Both the position numbers and the translations under genes were made by a program. From IMG/VR virus record IMGVR_UViG_643348545_000010: a stretch of 16,207 nucleotides of DNA; one strand, 5' to 3'. This stretch comes from a virus. Taxonomy: Duplodnaviria > Heunggongvirae > Uroviricota > Caudoviricetes. The notes beneath the pieces were generated by a model. It searched no databases, was not told the DNA's origin, and saw only the letters and a program-made list of their open reading frames with translations. This document shows positions 1 through 7,795 of the stretch, piece after piece; positions within the stretch are counted from its first letter, which is position 1, and every line of letters begins with the position of its first letter.

Positions 1-165
1 ATGGCAAAGCCGATCATCACGCTCAATGGCCTAAAAATCGTCATTATGTTGGGAATGCTGGTCATTATTCTCTGCGGTATCCGTTTTGCCGCCGAGATCA
101 TCGTGCCGTTTATTCTCGCATTATTTATTGCTGTTATATATAACTTATTTCACATAACACGTTGA
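1..165 (+). pseudogene. tqsA: 5' fragment of tqsA (AI-2 exporter TqsA/YdgG), interrupted by the island
   Basis: ATG at 1; translation [45 protein letters not shown] matches my memory of the E. coli TqsA N-terminus. After about codon 45 (nt ~136) the sequence turns AT-rich, reads IYNLFHITR and stops at TGA 163-165. The native protein is about 344 aa. Confidence 0.5.
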
Positions 166-211
166 TTTAATTAAATAATTTTCACCGCAAAAAGTGCCAA
201 AAATCGCAAAA

Positions 212-233
212 TGACTACACCAGTGACTACACC
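212..233 (+). repeat. Tandem direct repeat TGACTACACC-AG-TGACTACACC near the left junction; possible integrase arm-type site
   Basis: Two exact 10-mers with 12-bp phasing, about 70-90 bp inside the point where the tqsA frame diverges. Confidence 0.4.
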
Positions 234-249
234 GTTCGGTGCACTGTAT

Positions 250-276
250 GAAACAACGTGGAACAAATAGACACAA
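250..276 (-). promoter_or_regulatory. Phased TTGTTC-type hexamer repeats (minus-strand orientation), left-end copy
   Basis: Plus strand reads GAAACAA-cgtg-GAACAA-atag-ACACAA. A 15-bp core AACAACGTGGAACAA is identical to the site at 7753-7778. Confidence 0.4.
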
Positions 277-344
277 GAAATATACAGGCGGATCATCTTT
301 CCAGGGGGAAGCGCACCAATTCATGAGGGGCGTTAATGTCGATA

Positions 345-747
345 TGGGGATCCCCACCTACCGGAATTTTTTTCCGGTTAAACGTTAATCAGGCTGGTGG
401 GCTTTACCTGTTCGGTAGGTGTTATGATTATCGTAATACCTTTCCCCCAATGGGGTAAAAGCATCAACCGTAACGAAAGTCGTTATGGTTGCCACTGATA
501 CCCCAAATTTGGGTATCACGAGTAAGACCCAAAATCTGGGTGTTACTCTTACTACCCAAACTACGGGTAGTTTCCGTAGTTTCATGGTCGAGTTGCAGAT
601 CTGCAACTCCCCCATTAACCACAGGCGAATTTCCGCCTTCGGTCATTCCTTAATCATCTGCGTAATCATAATGATTATTCAGCAAGCGCAATTTTGCACT
701 TTGCTTAAAGTTCAGCGAGTTACCGCGCCGACTTCCTCAAATTGAGG
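345..747. repeat. Palindrome-dense non-coding block at the distal end of the island
   Basis: TGGGGATCCCCA (345-356); CCGGAA-N5-TTCCGG (361-377) nested inside CACCTACCG...CGGTAGGTG (355-363 / 413-421); CCCCAATGGGG (445-455); three sites of form ACCC-A3-N-T3-GGGT spaced about 27 bp apart (499-516, 527-541, 553-570); direct repeat GTAGTTTC x2 (567-583); GTTGCAGATCTGCAAC (592-607); CCTCAAATTGAGG (735-747). ORFs here have implausible composition. Confidence 0.5.
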
Positions 748-902
748 TTTCCGAAAATATCAGCGGGTTAGCGATTAAGCTGATCATTAATTAAACTGCG
801 AAAATTTCGTAGTTTGTGACTGTCTTTCAGGCAGCTTGTTAACAGTCCTCAGAAGCGAGGGATGTAGCCACCCATTTTTGGTCCGTCGGGAATATCAACC
901 AG

Positions 903-1184
903 TTACCGCCGCAACCGCTCCGGCTTCTTCCAGTGGTACGTTATTTTCTCCTTCTCCCGATACATCTCCACGCGGCGACGGTAGGCCAGCAACTCAAGAA
1001 CTCTGGTTCGTATGTTGCGCATATCCACGCCATTAAGTTCTATACCATCACGGCGCATCACCTCAGCAACAACACGCGCATAGTTTTCGGCTGTCACGCT
1101 GTCCGGCTGCGTGGCCTGTTCGTCAGCCTGCTGGCTGATTCCGGCAACGCGGCGGATTAATCCCGTTATTTCGGCTTCTGTCAT
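903..1184 (-). CDS. Hypothetical protein (93 aa), last gene of the packaging operon
   Basis: ATG at 1184 with GAGGT 8 nt upstream; starts 14 nt after the terL stop. No recognisable motif. Confidence 0.55.
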   Translation of the reverse strand: MTEAEITGLIRRVAGISQQADEQATQPDSVTAENYARVVAEVMRRDGIELNGVDMRNIRTRVLELLAYRRRVEMYREKEKITYHWKKPERLRR

Positions 1185-1197
1185 GCTGCTGACCTCA

Positions 1198-2859
1198 TTA
1201 CACCCCGCTAAATTCTTCCAGTTTCTGGCGGTGGCTGTCGCTTATATCAAAAGCAAAATCCTCATGCTCTGCCTGGAATGTACCAAACGCCATCAGCGCC
1301 GCCACGCTCGGGTCTATCTTGTTCGGTGATTTTTTCTTGTTCGGCTTGATATTGGCGTTCGCGTCACTCTGCATCACGACGTTACTCATCGACCAGGACA
1401 ACACCGGATCGCCACGATGCACAATCACCCTGCGGTTAACAAAAACTTCGAACGATTTCGCCGCCGGACTGAATCTGAGGTAGGTTTGCGGGAACGGCTC
1501 CACCTCAAAACCTGCCCCCTGTAATTGCGTTCTGAGATGCGTGGCGTTCCACGTATCAAAGCCCACCAGCCTGATATTAAATTTCTCCGCGTCCTGCATG
1601 ATGTCATCTCTGATCCGGTCGTAATCAATGCAGTCGCCAGGCGTTGTGCGTATCCAGCCTGCTTTAGCCCACTGACGATAGATGGCGCGGTTTTTATTGG
1701 CGGGGTTCTGTAGCTGAAATTCCGGCAGATAGTGACGGGAAACCAGCATAATGGTTTTACCGACCGGAAAGGCATAGCACACGCTGGAAATATCGCTGGT
1801 TGATGATAAGTCCAGCCCCGCGTAACACTCCTGGCCGTGTAAATCTTCCTCCGTGAACGTTCCGGCACACTCAGCCCATGCGCCGTTACCCATCCACGGG
1901 GTAGCCCCCTGGCACCAGATATTAAATCGCTTTGTCATCATCTCCACCCACTGCGACGGAATACCCCGCGCTTTCTGGATGGTTGAGGCCAGTTTTTCAC
2001 GATCCACGGAAACATCAATATTAGGGTTCGCCTTTATCCACATCGCCGGATCATCAACCTCGTTTTCGTCGTCCAGTTCGTAAATCAGTACAAAAATTGA
2101 ATCGTTGACCTCTTCGCCGTCCAGGATCTGGCAGCAATAATCATAGTGCTGCTTACAGGCTGAAACGACGTTACTGCCTGATGTGGTAATAGCAAATAAC
2201 AGCCCTTCGGGACGTGCGCCCATCCCCAGCTCAAGCGCGGAATAAACGCCGTTATCGGGGTGCAAGTGGTATTCGTCCACGATGGAAAGGCTGGGGTTTG
2301 TTCCCTCGATGGTTGCCGCTTTTGCTGCCAGCGGCTTTAACAGGCTGTTGCTTTTCGGGTGTATCACCTTATGCGCCTGAATATTCACCCGCCTGCGTAA
2401 CGGTCGGGATAAAAGGCACATCTGACGCGCATCATCAAAGACGATCCGCGCCTGGTCACGGCTCACCGCTGCGGTGTAAATATCCTGCTGACCGTTCTCC
2501 ATAATCAGAAACCAGTTAGCCAGAATCGCGGCGGTCGTGGATTTCGCATTTTTGCGCGGCACTTCGATAAAGGCGCTCGTGTATTTGCGCCGTCCGGTGG
2601 CCTTAACCTTAAAGCCGAGGATGCACGCAAAGGCGAACTGCTGCCACGGCTCCAGCTCAATGGGTCTGCCACGCATCGGCCCTTTTACGTGCGGGCACAC
2701 CCTGGAAAAGGCAATAAACCGCTCCACAACCTCACGATCGAACGTGTAAAGGGGGCTTTCAAGGTCCGAAAAGTACCGTTTAACGGCCTGTTTCAGCCGT
2801 TTACAGGCCGGAATTTTGCCCGTTTTTACGTCTTCTGCGTACTTATTCCAGGCGGTCAA
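1198..2859 (-). CDS. terL: Terminase large subunit (Terminase_1 / HK97-like)
   Basis: 553-aa ORF with typical TerL ATPase and nuclease architecture. Apparent TTG start at 2859 with GAGGA 7 nt upstream, overlapping the terS 3' end by 17 nt. Confidence 0.88.
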   Translation of the reverse strand: MTAWNKYAEDVKTGKIPACKRLKQAVKRYFSDLESPLYTFDREVVERFIAFSRVCPHVKGPMRGRPIELEPWQQFAFACILGFKVKATGRRKYTSAFIEVPRKNAKSTTAAILANWFLIMENGQQDIYTAAVSRDQARIVFDDARQMCLLSRPLRRRVNIQAHKVIHPKSNSLLKPLAAKAATIEGTNPSLSIVDEYHLHPDNGVYSALELGMGARPEGLLFAITTSGSNVVSACKQHYDYCCQILDGEEVNDSIFVLIYELDDENEVDDPAMWIKANPNIDVSVDREKLASTIQKARGIPSQWVEMMTKRFNIWCQGATPWMGNGAWAECAGTFTEEDLHGQECYAGLDLSSTSDISSVCYAFPVGKTIMLVSRHYLPEFQLQNPANKNRAIYRQWAKAGWIRTTPGDCIDYDRIRDDIMQDAEKFNIRLVGFDTWNATHLRTQLQGAGFEVEPFPQTYLRFSPAAKSFEVFVNRRVIVHRGDPVLSWSMSNVVMQSDANANIKPNKKKSPNKIDPSVAALMAFGTFQAEHEDFAFDISDSHRQKLEEFSGV

Positions 2860-3199
2860 GCTCGTCCTCTTCTTCTGTTTCCGGTGGATTTTTACGGCGG
2901 CTTATCGGGTCAAAACCGAGCAAGGAGGCCATTTTTATCATCACCCTTTCAGCGTCGGATTTTGCGCTTAATGCGGGGTTTCTGCTCTCGCCGCCCTGAC
3001 TGTTAACAATGCTGAACCCGCGCGCCGCAAGGTCTGCAACGGCTTTCCGGTAAATGGAGTAGTTGACACAATACAGTTCCAGATTGCTCCAGTCGGCGGG
3101 GGTCAGGTCTCCCCGTTCCGCAAGCTGCCGCGATTTTTCCCGCCACTGCTTCACGGCGATGTCATCCAGGTAGGCGGGGGCTTTCGGTGGTCTTGCCAT
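2843..3199 (-). CDS. terS: Terminase small subunit (P27-family-like)
   Basis: 118 aa, MARPPKAPAYLDD...WSNLELYC...GFDPISRRK, typical of P27-family TerS; sits directly upstream of terL. No obvious SD. Confidence 0.75.
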   Translation of the reverse strand: MARPPKAPAYLDDIAVKQWREKSRQLAERGDLTPADWSNLELYCVNYSIYRKAVADLAARGFSIVNSQGGESRNPALSAKSDAERVMIKMASLLGFDPISRRKNPPETEEEDELDRLE

Positions 3200-3490
3200 A
3201 CTTATTTTTTCGCCAGATTATTTTTCAAAAAATTCCCGTGCATAAAAATTTGAGGAGGCGGTCGGTGCCCGGCGGGGTCGGGTTTGTCCTGAAAACGCCC
3301 CCACCCCGTCATACAGCCTCATCAGCGATTGCGAAAACATTCCATAACCTCGCGGTCACGGTCGGTTAATCGCTTCGCTGTGATGCGTTCTGCGCGTCCT
3401 GACGCTTTATCTTTATGCCCTGTTTCCTGTGTCTTCCATGCGTCACGCTGCCTTATCAGTCCACGGATAAGGCGGTTTTGTTCCCGCTCA

Positions 3491-3928
3491 TTAATCAGCG
3501 TCATACATCCAGTTATTGCGGTTAGCGGCCCGTTCTTCCTCTTCACGAAATCCACCTGCGGCACGCTTGCTTTTTGTTGCCGGATCAAGCCATTTCGTTT
3601 TCTGGTTATGGCACGCCTGACACAATGGCTGATGGTTCCATTCGGGCCAGAAGAGAACATCATCACCGCCATCGATGGGGATAATGTGATCCACCACCAC
3701 GGCGGGCGTATATATCCCCTTCTCAAGGCATCGCACGCATAACGGGTTTTTACTCAGATACATGGCGCGGTATTTGTCCCACTGTCTGGAATATCCACGC
3801 GCGCGGCGGTGTCCTCGTCTGGCATCCTCTGCACGCCATGCCGCCCGCCTGTGCTCCTCACACTTGCCGGATTTAACGCGCCTGTTACAGCCTGGTTCTG
3901 TGCATCGTCTTAATGGTTGCCACGGCAT
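3491..3928 (-). CDS. HNH endonuclease (packaging-associated)
   Basis: 145 aa with Cys/His-rich motifs (CxxC...HxxxH...CxxCH); GGGGG SD; position next to terS as in HK97-like cos phages. Confidence 0.8.
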   Translation of the reverse strand: MPWQPLRRCTEPGCNRRVKSGKCEEHRRAAWRAEDARRGHRRARGYSRQWDKYRAMYLSKNPLCVRCLEKGIYTPAVVVDHIIPIDGGDDVLFWPEWNHQPLCQACHNQKTKWLDPATKSKRAAGGFREEEERAANRNNWMYDAD

Positions 3929-4224
3929 CAGTACACCCCCACATCACGGTAAGCCGTCCAGAGTGCGCCTATCGTCATGGGTACGCGTGTTTTTGCGTTA
4001 TCCGCGACAATCTGGCGATTTTCATACAGGTGAGCGATAAACATCATGCAGCCAATCTTTATGGCTGGCGTGAACTCCAGCCCGTCATCAAAGCGCCTGC
4101 CTATGTGTATCTGGCACGCCTCAAGCGATGCGGCAATGTATCCGCTGATTAACTGGTCTTCATCGTCGCCATCGATGCGGCAATGGAGTTTCACTTCTTC
4201 CAGGGTGATAAGTTCTTCTGTCAT
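3928..4224 (-). CDS. Head-tail connector protein (gp6-like)
   Basis: 98 aa, MTEELITLEEVKLHCRID..., typical N-terminus of gp6-like connector proteins; stop overlaps the HNH start. Confidence 0.7.
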   Translation of the reverse strand: MTEELITLEEVKLHCRIDGDDEDQLISGYIAASLEACQIHIGRRFDDGLEFTPAIKIGCMMFIAHLYENRQIVADNAKTRVPMTIGALWTAYRDVGVY

Positions 4225-4559
4225 TTTTCCGCGCCCTCACGACAAAGAATTTCAAGGCGTGTCCTGGCGGCATCCGGCAGCGGCTGCCCGATGATATTCA
4301 GTACACGCCCCGCCAGCGGCCCCGTACTGACCTTTATCCGGCTGGTGGCGTTGATGTCCTTCCGGTACCGTATCCAGATCCTTACGGTACCAATCGCCAG
4401 CTCTGCGCCCGATGAAATGGCCTCCTTGCTGCTGACCATGTTCACGCTTGCCCAGAGTGTGTGACCGTCCTCCCACGTTTCGAGTATTTCGCCGGTTATA
4501 TCCCTGGTCTGTTTCAGGGTCTGAATCGTTATCCTGTCACGCAGTCGCCCTATGTTCAT
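4221..4559 (-). CDS. Head-tail adaptor / head closure protein
   Basis: Internal ATG at 4559 (MNIGRLRDRITIQ...) preceded by GGGAGAA; ATGA overlap with the portal stop and with the downstream connector start. Confidence 0.7.
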   Translation of the reverse strand: MNIGRLRDRITIQTLKQTRDITGEILETWEDGHTLWASVNMVSSKEAISSGAELAIGTVRIWIRYRKDINATSRIKVSTGPLAGRVLNIIGQPLPDAARTRLEILCREGAEK

Positions 4560-5767
4560 TCCGGTTTTTCTCCCTCGCTGATTTTTACTTCCTGTTTCCA
4601 TGCCTGGCTGAACTCATCACCACCATCACGCGGTGACAGACCTTCACGTTCGCGGGCTTCGTTCGGACACATAACGCCGGATTTGATGCCGCGCTCATAG
4701 GTGGCAAAGCGTTCGCCAGGTGTGGCCCGTAACAGGTCCGCGCTGTCAAACTCCACCTGATACCGGATACCAGGTACAGGCGAGGCCACCAGCAGGGCGT
4801 TTTTTATCTGCTGCTCAAAGTTCGCCAGCCACGGGCGCATCGTCATGGTGAGAAATGCGCGGCTTGCCTCGCTGAAATTGCTGTAGGTGCTGTTGCTGTA
4901 TTCCTGCAAAAAAATCGGCGAGACGTTGAACATTCGGGCGATGTCTTCAATGGTGAAGCGACGGGAGGCCAGCCATTCAGCATCCTGATTACTCATGCCC
5001 AGCTGCTGATAGCTCATACCCCCTTCAAGGATGGGCGTTTTTCCGGCATTTCTGGCCCCTTTGTAGCGTTCCAGTGCGGCTAATGCCTGTTTGCCCTTCA
5101 CGCCGTCCAGCCATTCGCCTGACGTGATAACCCCTGCCGCCATCATGCCATCACGCATCACGCTCGCGCCGTGGCGTTGTTGGGCCAGCCCAAGCCCCAG
5201 CGATTCGCGGCAGATGGTTACAGGTGAGCGCCCCATAAAACCGTCATCCGTGGAGTAACGAAGGTGGAGAACCTCCCACGGTAAATAGTTGCGGGTGTTT
5301 CCGGTGTAGGCGTCAGTGATGCAGTAGCGCCAGTTATGCTCACCTGTCTGCTCAACGTTCACCGACTGCGGCGGGTAAGGATGCAAAGCGACCGGAAAAC
5401 CATCACGCCCCCACTGAATCACCGCATAAGCATTACCGTTTAACAGGCAGTGGCGGATCATCATTCGCTTAAACTGGTAGGGGGTCTGCCATGCGTTCGG
5501 GCGCTCGTTGAGGATGTGATCGACCGGATGAGAATCAAGCCACTCTCGGGCCTCCTTCCCCTTCTCATTGCGTACCAGGTACAGGTAACACGGCATGGTA
5601 GCCACCGCCTCAGAGATGACCGTGACGGCGTTCATGACGGCGGGCAGTGATTCCGCTGTCCCCGATGATACGTACTCACCCGCCCCCGTGTTCGATGTGC
5701 CAGCCAGCGCCATAAACTCATCAAGCGTCATGCTGCGCTGCTCTTTTTTTCTTCTGAAAGGCCACAT
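4556..5767 (-). CDS. Portal protein, HK97 family
   Basis: 403 aa with characteristic portal length and composition; GGGGG SD 7 nt upstream; start 2 nt after the protease stop. Confidence 0.88.
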   Translation of the reverse strand: MWPFRRKKEQRSMTLDEFMALAGTSNTGAGEYVSSGTAESLPAVMNAVTVISEAVATMPCYLYLVRNEKGKEAREWLDSHPVDHILNERPNAWQTPYQFKRMMIRHCLLNGNAYAVIQWGRDGFPVALHPYPPQSVNVEQTGEHNWRYCITDAYTGNTRNYLPWEVLHLRYSTDDGFMGRSPVTICRESLGLGLAQQRHGASVMRDGMMAAGVITSGEWLDGVKGKQALAALERYKGARNAGKTPILEGGMSYQQLGMSNQDAEWLASRRFTIEDIARMFNVSPIFLQEYSNSTYSNFSEASRAFLTMTMRPWLANFEQQIKNALLVASPVPGIRYQVEFDSADLLRATPGERFATYERGIKSGVMCPNEAREREGLSPRDGGDEFSQAWKQEVKISEGEKPE

Positions 5768-5768
5768 A

Positions 5769-6341
5769 TCACACCCCCGCTAAATCCGCCCACCAGCGGC
5801 GATTATCCGCACGCGGCATTTTTTCGGGGTGCTGCTCATACAGGGAACGGCGGGCCAGCTCCACGCCGGAATCGGGGTAAGCCGGTACCGATGTAACGGT
5901 AATTTCGTACAGTTCCGCCACCAGCACGGTGCGCACGCATGGATCTGTTGTGGTATCCCATACATCCTTACGGGAGCGAAAGCCAAAGCTCATCCCCGAG
6001 ATGTCCCCACGCTTAACCAGTTCGATAACGTCGCGCCCTGTACTGGTATCCGGTGGGGTCAGTTCAAAGCGTAACCCTGTTTCGTCCTCTTCCAGTTTCA
6101 GCGTGCCGGAACGGGTGCGCCCCAGTAACATGCTGTGGTCATGCTCATACAGGCCGCGAACGTCATTACCCGCCGCAAGCCATTCAGTAAACGCCCCCCG
6201 CTGGAATTTTTCGTAAAACTCACCCCATAACAGTTCTGAAAGCTTATCCCAGCGAACAACGTAGCCCGTCAGCGTACCGGCTCCGCTGGTGGTGATTTCC
6301 GATGACCGGATTTCCATACTCTTCATAATTTTTTCACCCAT
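5769..6341 (-). CDS. Prohead maturation protease, HK97 family (S78-like)
   Basis: 190 aa, ...GYVVRWDKLSE...LYEHD...GDISGMSFGF... resembles HK97 prohead protease. The true start may be the internal ATG at 6326. Confidence 0.8.
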   Translation of the reverse strand: MGEKIMKSMEIRSSEITTSGAGTLTGYVVRWDKLSELLWGEFYEKFQRGAFTEWLAAGNDVRGLYEHDHSMLLGRTRSGTLKLEEDETGLRFELTPPDTSTGRDVIELVKRGDISGMSFGFRSRKDVWDTTTDPCVRTVLVAELYEITVTSVPAYPDSGVELARRSLYEQHPEKMPRADNRRWWADLAGV

Positions 6342-6351
6342 AAAACACTAA

Positions 6352-6369
6352 AGGGGCTTTTAAGCCCCT
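6352..6369 (-). terminator. Hairpin between capsid and protease genes; likely attenuator
   Basis: Perfect stem AGGGGCTT / AAGCCCCT followed on the minus strand by a U-rich tract (UUAGUGUUUUAU). Confidence 0.45.
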
Positions 6370-6380
6370 TCTGTATGCTG

Positions 6381-7538
6381 TTAATCGTCGTCCTGTGGCA
6401 GTTCCAGAATCTTGATCGCGTTCGAATCCACCACGCCACCGCCTAAATATTTCTGCGTGAAAATTTTGATGAAGCCCGGCTCTGTGAGGTTGTCCGGTCT
6501 GGTGCGAACACCTGTTTCGTGATCAACAATGTAGTAACCGCGTTTGAAGTCACCCAGGGCAATAACGTTATCAGGCATAAACTCCAGATATTCGACCGGA
6601 AGGCCCAGCAACGTATCAGGATCACCCGCCTGTAAACGGTCGCGCCAGATGTAATCACCGTTCGCGTTCTTCACCTTCTGAAGTTTTGCCGCCGTCGTGG
6701 AGTTAACCACCCAGACCGCGTTTTTGCGGTATTTTTTACGTAATGCAAATTTCAGGTCGATCAGCGGGTCCGCAGATGTCCACGCCAGAGATTCGGAAGG
6801 TTTAATTACCTGCAACGTACCAAAATCACGCTCTTTGTCGTTCTTCTCTGCACGGGGTACGGATAAAAAGCCTTTTGCTTTTTTGTCACCGTCGCCCACA
6901 ACCAGATCGCTTTCTTCGGTTTCCGTGAAGGTGTCGCCAATCTCGCCCGTCAGCCATGAAAGGATGTCCACATCGGAAAAATCCACGATTTCCTGTGTGG
7001 TGCGCGGGTACGCATAGACCGGATACAGCTTAATGCTCACCTCGTTAATCTGCGGGGTGCTGGTCTGTTCGCGTGCCTTACCCTCTTCACCGTGGTTAAC
7101 GGTCGCACCGCCAGCGGAAACAAGCTGCTTAAACTCGTTGCTGCTGATTTTCTTCACGGTACAGATGCGGCGCATGGTGGATTCATCCGCCAGCATTCGC
7201 ATGATTTCGGTGTTCAGTTCGGGGATAACGGTATAACCACCATCAGCGGGAACGCCTGTACTTAATGCGCGGGTTTCACCCGTCAGAATGTAGTTTCGTA
7301 GTTCTGCGGGGTCAGTGGTCTGACTGCTTTTACCTGGCTTGCTGCGCTCTTCGTCTGCAATGGCTTCAAGGCGGGAAATGTCTTTATCGAGGGATTCAGC
7401 TTTAGCGCGTAATTCGTCAAATTTTGCGCCCTCAGCATCGTTAAGACTGCGGTTTTCTTTTTCAGCGTTCTCCAGCATGTCGCGCATCTGATTTTTAATG
7501 GCGGTTTTCTGCTGGCGCAATTCGATTATTCTCGGCAT
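6381..7538 (-). CDS. Major capsid protein, HK97 fold
   Basis: Start taken at ATG 7538 (MPRIIELRQQ...), giving a coiled-coil N-terminal domain typical of HK97-family capsids. The ORF track extends to 7586, but that extension is the terminator hairpin. Confidence 0.88.
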   Translation of the reverse strand: MPRIIELRQQKTAIKNQMRDMLENAEKENRSLNDAEGAKFDELRAKAESLDKDISRLEAIADEERSKPGKSSQTTDPAELRNYILTGETRALSTGVPADGGYTVIPELNTEIMRMLADESTMRRICTVKKISSNEFKQLVSAGGATVNHGEEGKAREQTSTPQINEVSIKLYPVYAYPRTTQEIVDFSDVDILSWLTGEIGDTFTETEESDLVVGDGDKKAKGFLSVPRAEKNDKERDFGTLQVIKPSESLAWTSADPLIDLKFALRKKYRKNAVWVVNSTTAAKLQKVKNANGDYIWRDRLQAGDPDTLLGLPVEYLEFMPDNVIALGDFKRGYYIVDHETGVRTRPDNLTEPGFIKIFTQKYLGGGVVDSNAIKILELPQDDD

Positions 7539-7575
7539 AAAAAAAGTCCTGGGGTTAAGTAAGGAACTCCAGGAC
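7539..7575 (-). terminator. Intrinsic-terminator-like hairpin plus U7 immediately 5' of the capsid start codon
   Basis: Minus strand: GTCCTGG-(16-nt loop)-CCAGGAC-UUUUUUU-AUG. The 7-bp stem is perfect, 7 U follow, and there are 0 nt between the U-run and the ATG. No SD. Confidence 0.5.
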
Positions 7576-7627
7576 GCGGCAAACACTCAACCGTTTTTCA
7601 TAAGGAAATCAGCAATCGCACCGTTCG

Positions 7628-7675
7628 TTTTCCCGCCTGGTAATGAATATTGGCGAGCACATTAACAGGCGGGAA
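7628..7675. promoter_or_regulatory. 17-bp inverted repeat (16/17 match) with 14-bp spacer in the packaging-operon leader
   Basis: TTTCCCGCCTGTTAATG ... CATTACCAGGCGGGAAA on the minus strand, about 100 bp upstream of the capsid start. Confidence 0.45.
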
Positions 7676-7752
7676 AGTGGCCCCAGCGTCCTGGCACCAC
7701 GGGCGAGAATAATCATGATTCAGTTCGGGTAAAATATGCCGATCCGCTCAGT

Positions 7753-7778
7753 GAACAACGTGGAACAACCACGAACAA
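7753..7778 (-). promoter_or_regulatory. Three phased hexamers (GAACAA on plus = TTGTTC on minus) with 10-bp periodicity upstream of the packaging operon
   Basis: GAACAA-cgtg-GAACAA-ccac-GAACAA; same motif family as 250-276 and 14898-14943. Confidence 0.45.
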
Positions 7779-7795
7779 ATAATTTACAAAAAATA

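Follow-up and report, generated by a model that had tools for sequence, protein, structure and literature searches.

[quoted passage not shown] The satellite sits in tqsA by way of the 9-bp sequence TGCTGTTAT, and the doubled motifs of its attachment site are very probably arm-type sites of the integrase (Int). A P4-like integrase recombined the island into codons 43–46 of tqsA, within the 9 bp held by both island and gene. What is left of the gene is a 137-nt 5′ piece that runs on into eight foreign codons and a stop codon, and, past the island, a 3′ piece of 906 nt to which the island adds no start in frame. In the mechanism that we propose, four half-sites would be bound by the Arm-DNA-bind_3 domains of an integrase tetramer, and arm-bound Int would bridge the arms to the core during both integration and excision.

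The left end of the window is host DNA. Positions 1–137 correspond to E. coli tqsA 1–137 at 99–100% identity in all IMG/VR loci holding the junction, and the window start is matched in 5424 of 5426 complete E. coli genomes. This 5′ fragment (1..137, plus strand) contains codons 1–45 and two further nucleotides, with the native start codon, and in relatives it is labelled by PGAP as [quoted passage not shown]. An initial annotation of this DNA had placed a tqsA-like N-terminus at nt 1, a loss of similarity around nt 136–141 and a stop at 163–165. The exact match to tqsA 1–137 bears out the first point, the first departure from the intact gene is nt 138 (A for T, silent, in codon 46), and translation puts a TGA at 163–165. 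Compared with the rebuilt TqsA, the truncated ORF (1..165, plus strand) encodes 54 aa, 46 of them native and the last eight, YNLFHITR, encoded by the island. The attL core TGCTGTTAT (129..137, on neither strand in particular) is the longest block common to attL and attR and is found in attL, attR, attB and attP alike. On its island side lies the P′ arm (138..300, plus strand), which is contiguous with the P arm in two excised contigs described below and about 60 nt of which repeat the P arm.

Because the window ends at the start codon of int, the right junction was read in relatives, and the evidence on attR comes from those whose int region is 96–99.8% identical to that of the window. The attL of the O55:H7 strain USDA5905 (L001) shows 100% identity to that of the window along 1.2 kb, and strain 2013C-4991 (L026) agrees with the window at 99.8% in the int region. 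In both relatives about 190 nt of island DNA separate int from the remaining 906 nt of tqsA, so that the remainder of the gene sought beyond the window end is found past the integrase. TGCTGTTAT is the sole block common to the two junctions; a direct repeat matching nt ~125–150, as had been anticipated, does exist, but it is 9 bp long (129–137) and not about 25 bp. Joined together, window 1–137 and L001 34489–35386 give an exact, uninterrupted tqsA of 1035 nt and 344 aa, which upholds the initial claim of an insertion within this gene. That claim had been made to depend on comparison with an uninterrupted tqsA locus and on the N-terminal ORF being tqsA, which it is. A 200-nt probe over the rebuilt attB was intact in 5171 of the 5426 complete E. 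coli genomes and gave two half-matches in 252, and the attL of the window is common to 193 genomes over 1.2 kb. The break always falls at 1–137/129–1035 in the 18 IMG/VR loci. A tqsA that is merely short or variant in this lineage, with no island junction, is refuted by the exact rejoining, the 5171 intact sites and the constant break; with the remaining 906 nt lying directly past the integrase in every relative, its probability is next to nil.

The consequences for the gene follow from both junctions. At attL, the native promoter and 46 native codons lead into the eight codons of the island and the stop. At attR, TGA and TAA stand in frame just before the 3′ tqsA fragment, and a tblastn search of the window for TqsA-like sequence matched the 5′ fragment alone. 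The initial annotation had argued that integration would truncate tqsA unless the island supplied a replacement 3′ end at the other junction. The truncation is real, but there is no replacement, and what the other junction carries is the original 3′ part. A tqsA end or homologue supplied by the island is ruled out by the stop at 163–165, the in-frame stops at attR and the tblastn result. With no replacement end at either junction, tqsA is broken, and both pieces are pseudogenes according to PGAP in the relatives. The first in-frame starts in the 3′ fragment are Val51 and Met54; a product from either is possible, although it would be without the entire first hydrophobic stretch (hydropathy window centres, residues 12–47). 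Promoter scans found no consensus promoter upstream of the 3′ fragment and one weak match only in the P′ arm. We infer that cells with the integrated island lack TqsA function and that precise excision would restore the gene. TqsA is assigned the control of AI-2 efflux in a passage of PMC1899176 that cites Herzberg 2006.

Restoration upon excision raises the question of whether the insertion is a reversible switch (“regulated gene integrity”), with tqsA restored when a helper phage induces excision. The integrated satellite would then abolish TqsA-dependent AI-2 export, and spontaneous or helper-triggered excision at TGCTGTTAT would restore tqsA in the surviving cells, a switch that would alter biofilm and motility behaviour. 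The anatomy agrees with this: tqsA is split precisely and without any restoring sequence, exact joining rebuilds the gene, excised attP forms exist, and a sister integrase also splits a gene, yifB. Moreover, regulated gene integrity has been suggested for tqsA in PMC7192596, which lists the gene as a candidate. Against it, sister alleles use intergenic sites (upstream of roxA, and between abgR and smrA) equally well, and tqsA is intact in 95% of genomes. PICI excision also normally accompanies lytic growth of the helper, so that a cell regaining tqsA usually dies. We regard a switch as improbable, and the insertion of a satellite that simply interrupts tqsA is the reading retained here.

The integrated body occupies 138..16207 on the minus strand, as delimited by the junctions and by gene content in relatives. 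With the missing P arm of ~196 nt, taken from the closest relative (L026), the island amounts to ~16.3 kb. Nearly all of its genes are on the minus strand, including all those whose coordinates follow. The head and packaging module (1198..7586) contains, by Pfam, TerL (1198–2859), a P27-type TerS (2843–3199), an HNH protein (3491–3928), a gp6-like connector (3928–4224), a head completion protein (4221–4601), the portal (4556–5767), an S78 prohead protease (5769–6341) and an HK97-type major capsid protein (6381–7586), all eight above the curated Pfam cut-offs. The remaining assignments, also by Pfam, are a primase/replicase (9436..11184; D5_N, DUF5906, Pox_D5), an AlpA-family regulator (14427..14615; PF05930, E = 5e-18) and a P4-like tyrosine integrase of 405 aa (14990..16207), transcribed away from the att site located just past the window; an SSB is encoded as well. 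Among the Pfam and PHROGs matches of all larger ORFs there are no tail or lysis families, and no lambda cosN sequence occurs in the 16.2 kb. The placement within the cf-PICIs is based on this set of genes (int, AlpA and primase, a head and packaging set, neither tail nor lysis genes), together with a length within 10–18 kb. Islands of this type are induced by a helper phage and packaged in small capsids of their own that are joined to helper tails; the island of the window would be predicted to behave likewise, with the attP junctions in metagenome contigs of sister elements as indirect support. The best single genome among the 5,426 complete ones covers at most 88% of the window, the island being a mosaic of modules found in different relatives.

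An interrupted tqsA could also stem from a prophage remnant that has lost its mobility, is decaying and has become fixed in a small number of lineages. Some relatives carry small pseudogenes within the island, and we know of no helper phage for this variant. In the window, however, int is full-length and alpA, the primase and the head and packaging ORFs are intact. Furthermore, the int-attP module occurs with at least three cargoes in many serotypes and hosts, attP junctions are present in two metagenome contigs, and insertions at secondary sites are occasionally seen. A remnant is accordingly rated as very unlikely, and a satellite with an active integration module is preferred.

Several further features of the island were observed. 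Between the last island gene and attL, positions 440–625 form an unannotated stretch that is poor in ORFs and packed with hairpins. It holds three palindromes of 14–15 nt of the ACCCAAAtTTGGGT type, spaced 27 nt, with RNA-fold z-scores of −9.8 on the minus strand and −9.1 on the plus strand, and Rfam had nothing in window 1–1300 even at E ≤ 1. The core of this array (492–614) is found at 90–95% identity in ~400 other E. coli genomes. In four relatives, which are satellites with different terminases and att sites, the array adjoins an ORF of ~93 aa like the phrog_1561 ORF of the window. One of 37 pairs showed compensatory change, the variants being too similar to one another for covariation. 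A direct repeat of ~18 nt, AATATCAGCGGGTTAGCG-like, is present three times (708–725, 756–773 and 891–908), mostly with a small hairpin before it. In the satellites L041, L019 and L044, similar units border the hairpin array as well as an Abi-family gene; these repeats may mark module boundaries or terminators. The minus strand also carries a C4 antisense RNA (12309–12396; RF01695, 69 bits) and its a1/b1 target element (12464–12513; RF03163, 46.8 bits), which by their Rfam matches are a P1/P4-type RNA immunity module within the satellite; icd-like genes lie beside the equivalent C4 RNA region in relatives. Just downstream of the primase gene, 9194–9366 contains the short tandem repeats ACCTCCTCT, GGTAGAAGA and TAGCCCTCTACC, which are probably the iterons of the island replication origin. 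Finally, TTGTTGCACA is repeated 3.4 times in tandem at 14908–14941, within the AT-rich DNA (GC 0.38) that separates alpA from the stop codon of int, where it may be a regulatory site.

The interruption of tqsA is widespread. The gene is split in about 252 of the 5,426 complete E. coli genomes, belonging to many serotypes, and at least three different cargoes share the tqsA-type int-attP module. One integrase clade accounts for same-position insertions in 252 genomes with at least three cargoes, figures that are counts of genomes and cargoes rather than of events on a phylogeny. In EDL933 (L034, NZ_CP008957.1 2368175–2369209) tqsA is intact, and the island is found at tqsA in O55:H7 and in some O157:H7 strains, e.g. 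PV15-279. Occupancy of the site thus varies among members of the O157:H7/O55:H7 group. A conserved, quorum-sensing-related transporter is in this way knocked out in ~5% of sequenced E. coli by a mobile satellite and not by mutation, the affected strains including O55:H7, some O157:H7, O26 and O103. The split is relevant to the comparison of AI-2 and biofilm phenotypes between strains and to the annotation of pseudogenes.

Excised forms were detected with a 21-mer taken from the predicted attP junction, running from the last bases of the P arm through the core and into the P′ arm; it matched two metagenome contigs. The first (L002, IMGVR_UViG_3300045988_152974) has the order P arm, TGCTGTTAT, P′ arm, and is circular, given its 119-nt terminal overlap; in the second (L125, CYGL01000683.1), an independent contig, the attP junction is internal. 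Both have a cargo of ~11 kb with the tqsA-type int-attP module and without the HK97 head module, so that the evidence of excision is drawn from this ~11-kb cargo and not from the cf-type cargo of the window. The presence of excised attP on both contigs indicates that the int-attP module is active and shared among satellites. The first base of L002 coincides with the core; a branch of the assembly graph at that point, caused by integrated and excised forms side by side in the sample, would account for this.

The same int-attP module was also seen at places other than tqsA, in L003/L013 (one contig, IMGVR_UViG_2671180417_000010) and in L005. The core of L003/L013 is imperfect, TGCTGACAT at attL and TGCTGTTAT at attR, and in L005 the core is the same but its surroundings are different; these insertions are probably secondary sites or a tandem arrangement. 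The departure from the canonical core in L003/L013 is at positions 6–7 of the proposed 7-bp overlap, where attL has the bases of the host and attR those of the island, a mismatch that would fit a heteroduplex left in the overlap region.

The integrase contains an N-terminal Arm-DNA-bind_3 domain (PF13356, residues 4–91, E = 1.4e-18), a Phage_int_M region (PF22022, residues 127–196, 20.6 bits, below the 27-bit cut-off) and a Phage_integrase catalytic domain (PF00589, residues 210–371, E = 1.3e-16), an architecture that agrees with the P4-type integrase named in the initial annotation. The family, whose members are 75–100% identical, uses at least four attB sites: tqsA, roxA-upstream, yifB and abgR-smrA. 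Sister integrases of 80–92% nucleotide identity occur in L035 (O157:H7 JEONG-1266), L037 and L039 (strain 700481) and L038 and L040 (strain 357900), at sites that are, in this order, upstream of roxA (core AAATATGTCC), inside yifB and between abgR and smrA. Like tqsA, yifB is split into pseudogene pieces, in that case too by a cf-type island. The O157:H7 island beside roxA is not of the cf type but an ~11-kb element with a sister integrase. A natural chimeric integrase is found in L023 (IMGVR_UViG_2859821903_000003, int at 9208–10422), inserted upstream of roxA; its residues 1–50 and its arm motif are tqsA-type, and its residues 52–244 and its core are roxA-type.

The comparison with roxA-type elements also provides a register for the core. 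The roxA-type attP core, GATAAAA/TATGTCC/TTTTATC, is a perfect inverted repeat around 7 bp, and by alignment with it the 7-bp crossover of the tqsA type is probably TGCTGTT (129–135). Six integrases of the tqsA class and nine of the roxA class have no residue in common at positions 52, 53, 62, 80, 125 and 129, of which position 80 no longer discriminates once L001 is included. Along with the swapped core, such residues are candidates for what determines the choice of site. It is possible that E52G, T53A, S62N, I125A/D and R129K, combined with a swapped 7-bp overlap, would retarget the scaffold between roxA-upstream and tqsA.

The most distinctive feature of the attachment site is a doubled motif on each of its arms. 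In the P′ arm, TGACTACACC-AG-TGACTACACC (212..233, plus strand) consists of two exact copies, at 212–221 and 224–233, with a period of 12 nt, and is the presumed docking site of the Int N-terminus. Tandem 10-mers had been noticed at this position before, and the two copies with AG between them match that description. No other copy is present in the 16.2-kb window; with an expected recurrence at a fixed offset of ~16207/4^10 = 0.015, the doublet is not a chance occurrence. The invariant core of the motif is ACTACACC repeated twice with the 12-nt period. A second, co-oriented doublet lies on the P arm, 35–40 nt upstream of the int start, a distance kept in all 19 further loci and 6 genome loci, which represent at least four attB sites. 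The spacing from core to doublet is 74–76 nt on the P′ arm (74 in the window) and ~128 nt on the P arm, which places the doublets at ~79 and ~133 nt from the centre of attP. In all 25 readable loci, with Int identities as low as 75%, the two copies of ACTACACC are invariant, in contrast to the diverged arm sequence around them. A search with the 22-nt doubled motif gave no match in a one-genome-per-species collection, whose E. coli representative evidently lacks the island.

The variable bases of the motif, GTGAC..AG versus TTAAC..AT, follow the first ~40 residues of Int across the 25 loci. The form GTGACTACACC-AG-TGACTACACC is paired with the Int N-terminus LLRKLHGKPAEKNTFYS...KYLTSGKL and TTAACTACACC-AT-TAACTACACC with QLRKINGTPAQKTAFLN...RHSTSGLL, and a third N-terminus is paired with a third motif combination. 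The pairing is kept in the chimera L023, where N-terminus and motif are like those of the window and the remainder is roxA-type. Since no more than ~40 nt separate the P-arm motif from the codons for the Int N-terminus, linkage alone could give this covariation, and on the P′ arm the alleles are mixed, TGAC and TAAC occurring with both types of Int. A possible reading is a two-part int-attP code, in which the first ~50 residues of Int would read the arm-motif allele. The arm-type-site reading already offered for the 10-mers is strengthened by the presence of the motif on both arms, co-oriented, at fixed distances, conserved and tracking the N-terminal allele of Int. By analogy with P4, whose Int represses its own promoter, the int-proximal doublet probably lets Int repress its own promoter.

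A different binder would be AlpA or another accessory protein, the ACTACACC doublet being functional but not contacted by the Int arm domain. Tandem direct repeats are common targets of recombination directionality factors, the alpA gene is a neighbour of int, and binding by AlpA has been left open for the equivalent motif of HE-PICIs (PMC10111431). Yet L001 and L035 encode an identical AlpA (WP_000953272.1) despite having different motif alleles, and the allele tracks the first ~40 residues of Int, L023 included; these two facts favour Int over AlpA as the binder. Four half-sites on two arms also suit a tetramer with four arm domains, and a separate repeat is available for accessory factors. 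The latter is formed by three phased NNACAA units with a 10-nt period (251..276, plus strand; AAACAA 251–256, GAACAA 261–266, ACACAA 271–276), read from the sequence and aligned with the P arm, where the same pattern is found; the ~60-nt direct repeat of the two arms holds the doublet and then the NNACAA units. Our guess is that these units are bound by an accessory bending or excision factor. Altogether, AlpA or a similar protein is quite unlikely to be what binds the doublet, and the arm domain of Int is the binder that we favour. The 9-bp core, the doubled motifs and domain-swap chimeras make up a compact and testable model of PICI integrase retargeting.

Much of this picture is already known. 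Both the cf-PICIs and the several attB sites that they use have been described in the literature. Mageeney reported in 2020 that integrated elements disrupt tqsA (PMC7192596), and the gene was listed among the conserved E. coli genes disrupted by prophage integration by Bobay in 2013 (PMC3603311); the passages of these two papers that name tqsA say nothing of the core or the arm motifs, nor of the element being a cf-PICI. In the literature searched, we found no earlier description of the ACTACACC doublet and of its pairing with Int N-terminal alleles. The island type, the tqsA insertion site and the doubled-motif geometry of a sister clade have been described, and the anatomy of the att site is a modest new detail, the rest being ordinary and already explained. 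The current understanding of satellites and tyrosine recombinases is left unchanged by these findings.

Compared with known systems, the island shares with P4 the combination of Arm-DNA-bind_3 and catalytic domains and an int gene that adjoins attP and is transcribed away from it; in P4, Int-binding repeats overlap the int promoter region. P4, however, targets a tRNA-Leu gene at its 3′ end, which it reconstitutes on integration, whereas the island of the window interrupts a protein-coding gene internally and restores no part of it. The Int of lambda is heterobivalent, its N-terminal domain binding the arm repeats (P1, P2, P′1–3) and its C-terminal domains the core, and the binding of arm-type sites by an N-terminal domain is likewise what the proposed model would entail. 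In contrast to lambda, the N-terminal domain here is of family PF13356, and there are two identical, co-oriented doublets instead of the 2+3 layout.

The cf-PICI prototype EcCIEDL933 (10.1101/2022.09.08.507074) resembles the window in carrying int, alpA, primase/rep, its own HK97-type capsid, protease, portal, head–tail connectors, HNH, TerS and TerL, in having no tail or lysis genes, and in its length of ~15–16 kb. The two differ in that the island of the window is in tqsA, a gene that is intact in EDL933, which rules out that it is EcCIEDL933 itself. The closest parallel to the doubled motif is that of the HE-PICIs described by the Williams group (PMC10111431), whose attPs contain the doubled motif tgTGTATTGCantgTGTATTGCa at 81 ± 2 and 132 ± 2 bp from the centre. 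There, the integrase arm domains or AlpA were proposed as binder, and the motif was not found in other PICIs. Both systems have related PICI integrases, an 8-nt core repeated with a 12-nt period, two co-oriented copies at ~80 and ~132 nt, and the same arm-domain hypothesis. They differ in the sequence of the motif, ACTACACC in the window and TGTATTGC in HE-PICIs, and in their targets, which are chromosomal for the clade of the window (tqsA, roxA-upstream, yifB, abgR-smrA) and prophage late genes for HE-PICIs. In the clade of the window, unlike in HE-PICIs, the motif alleles can be paired with N-terminal alleles of Int.
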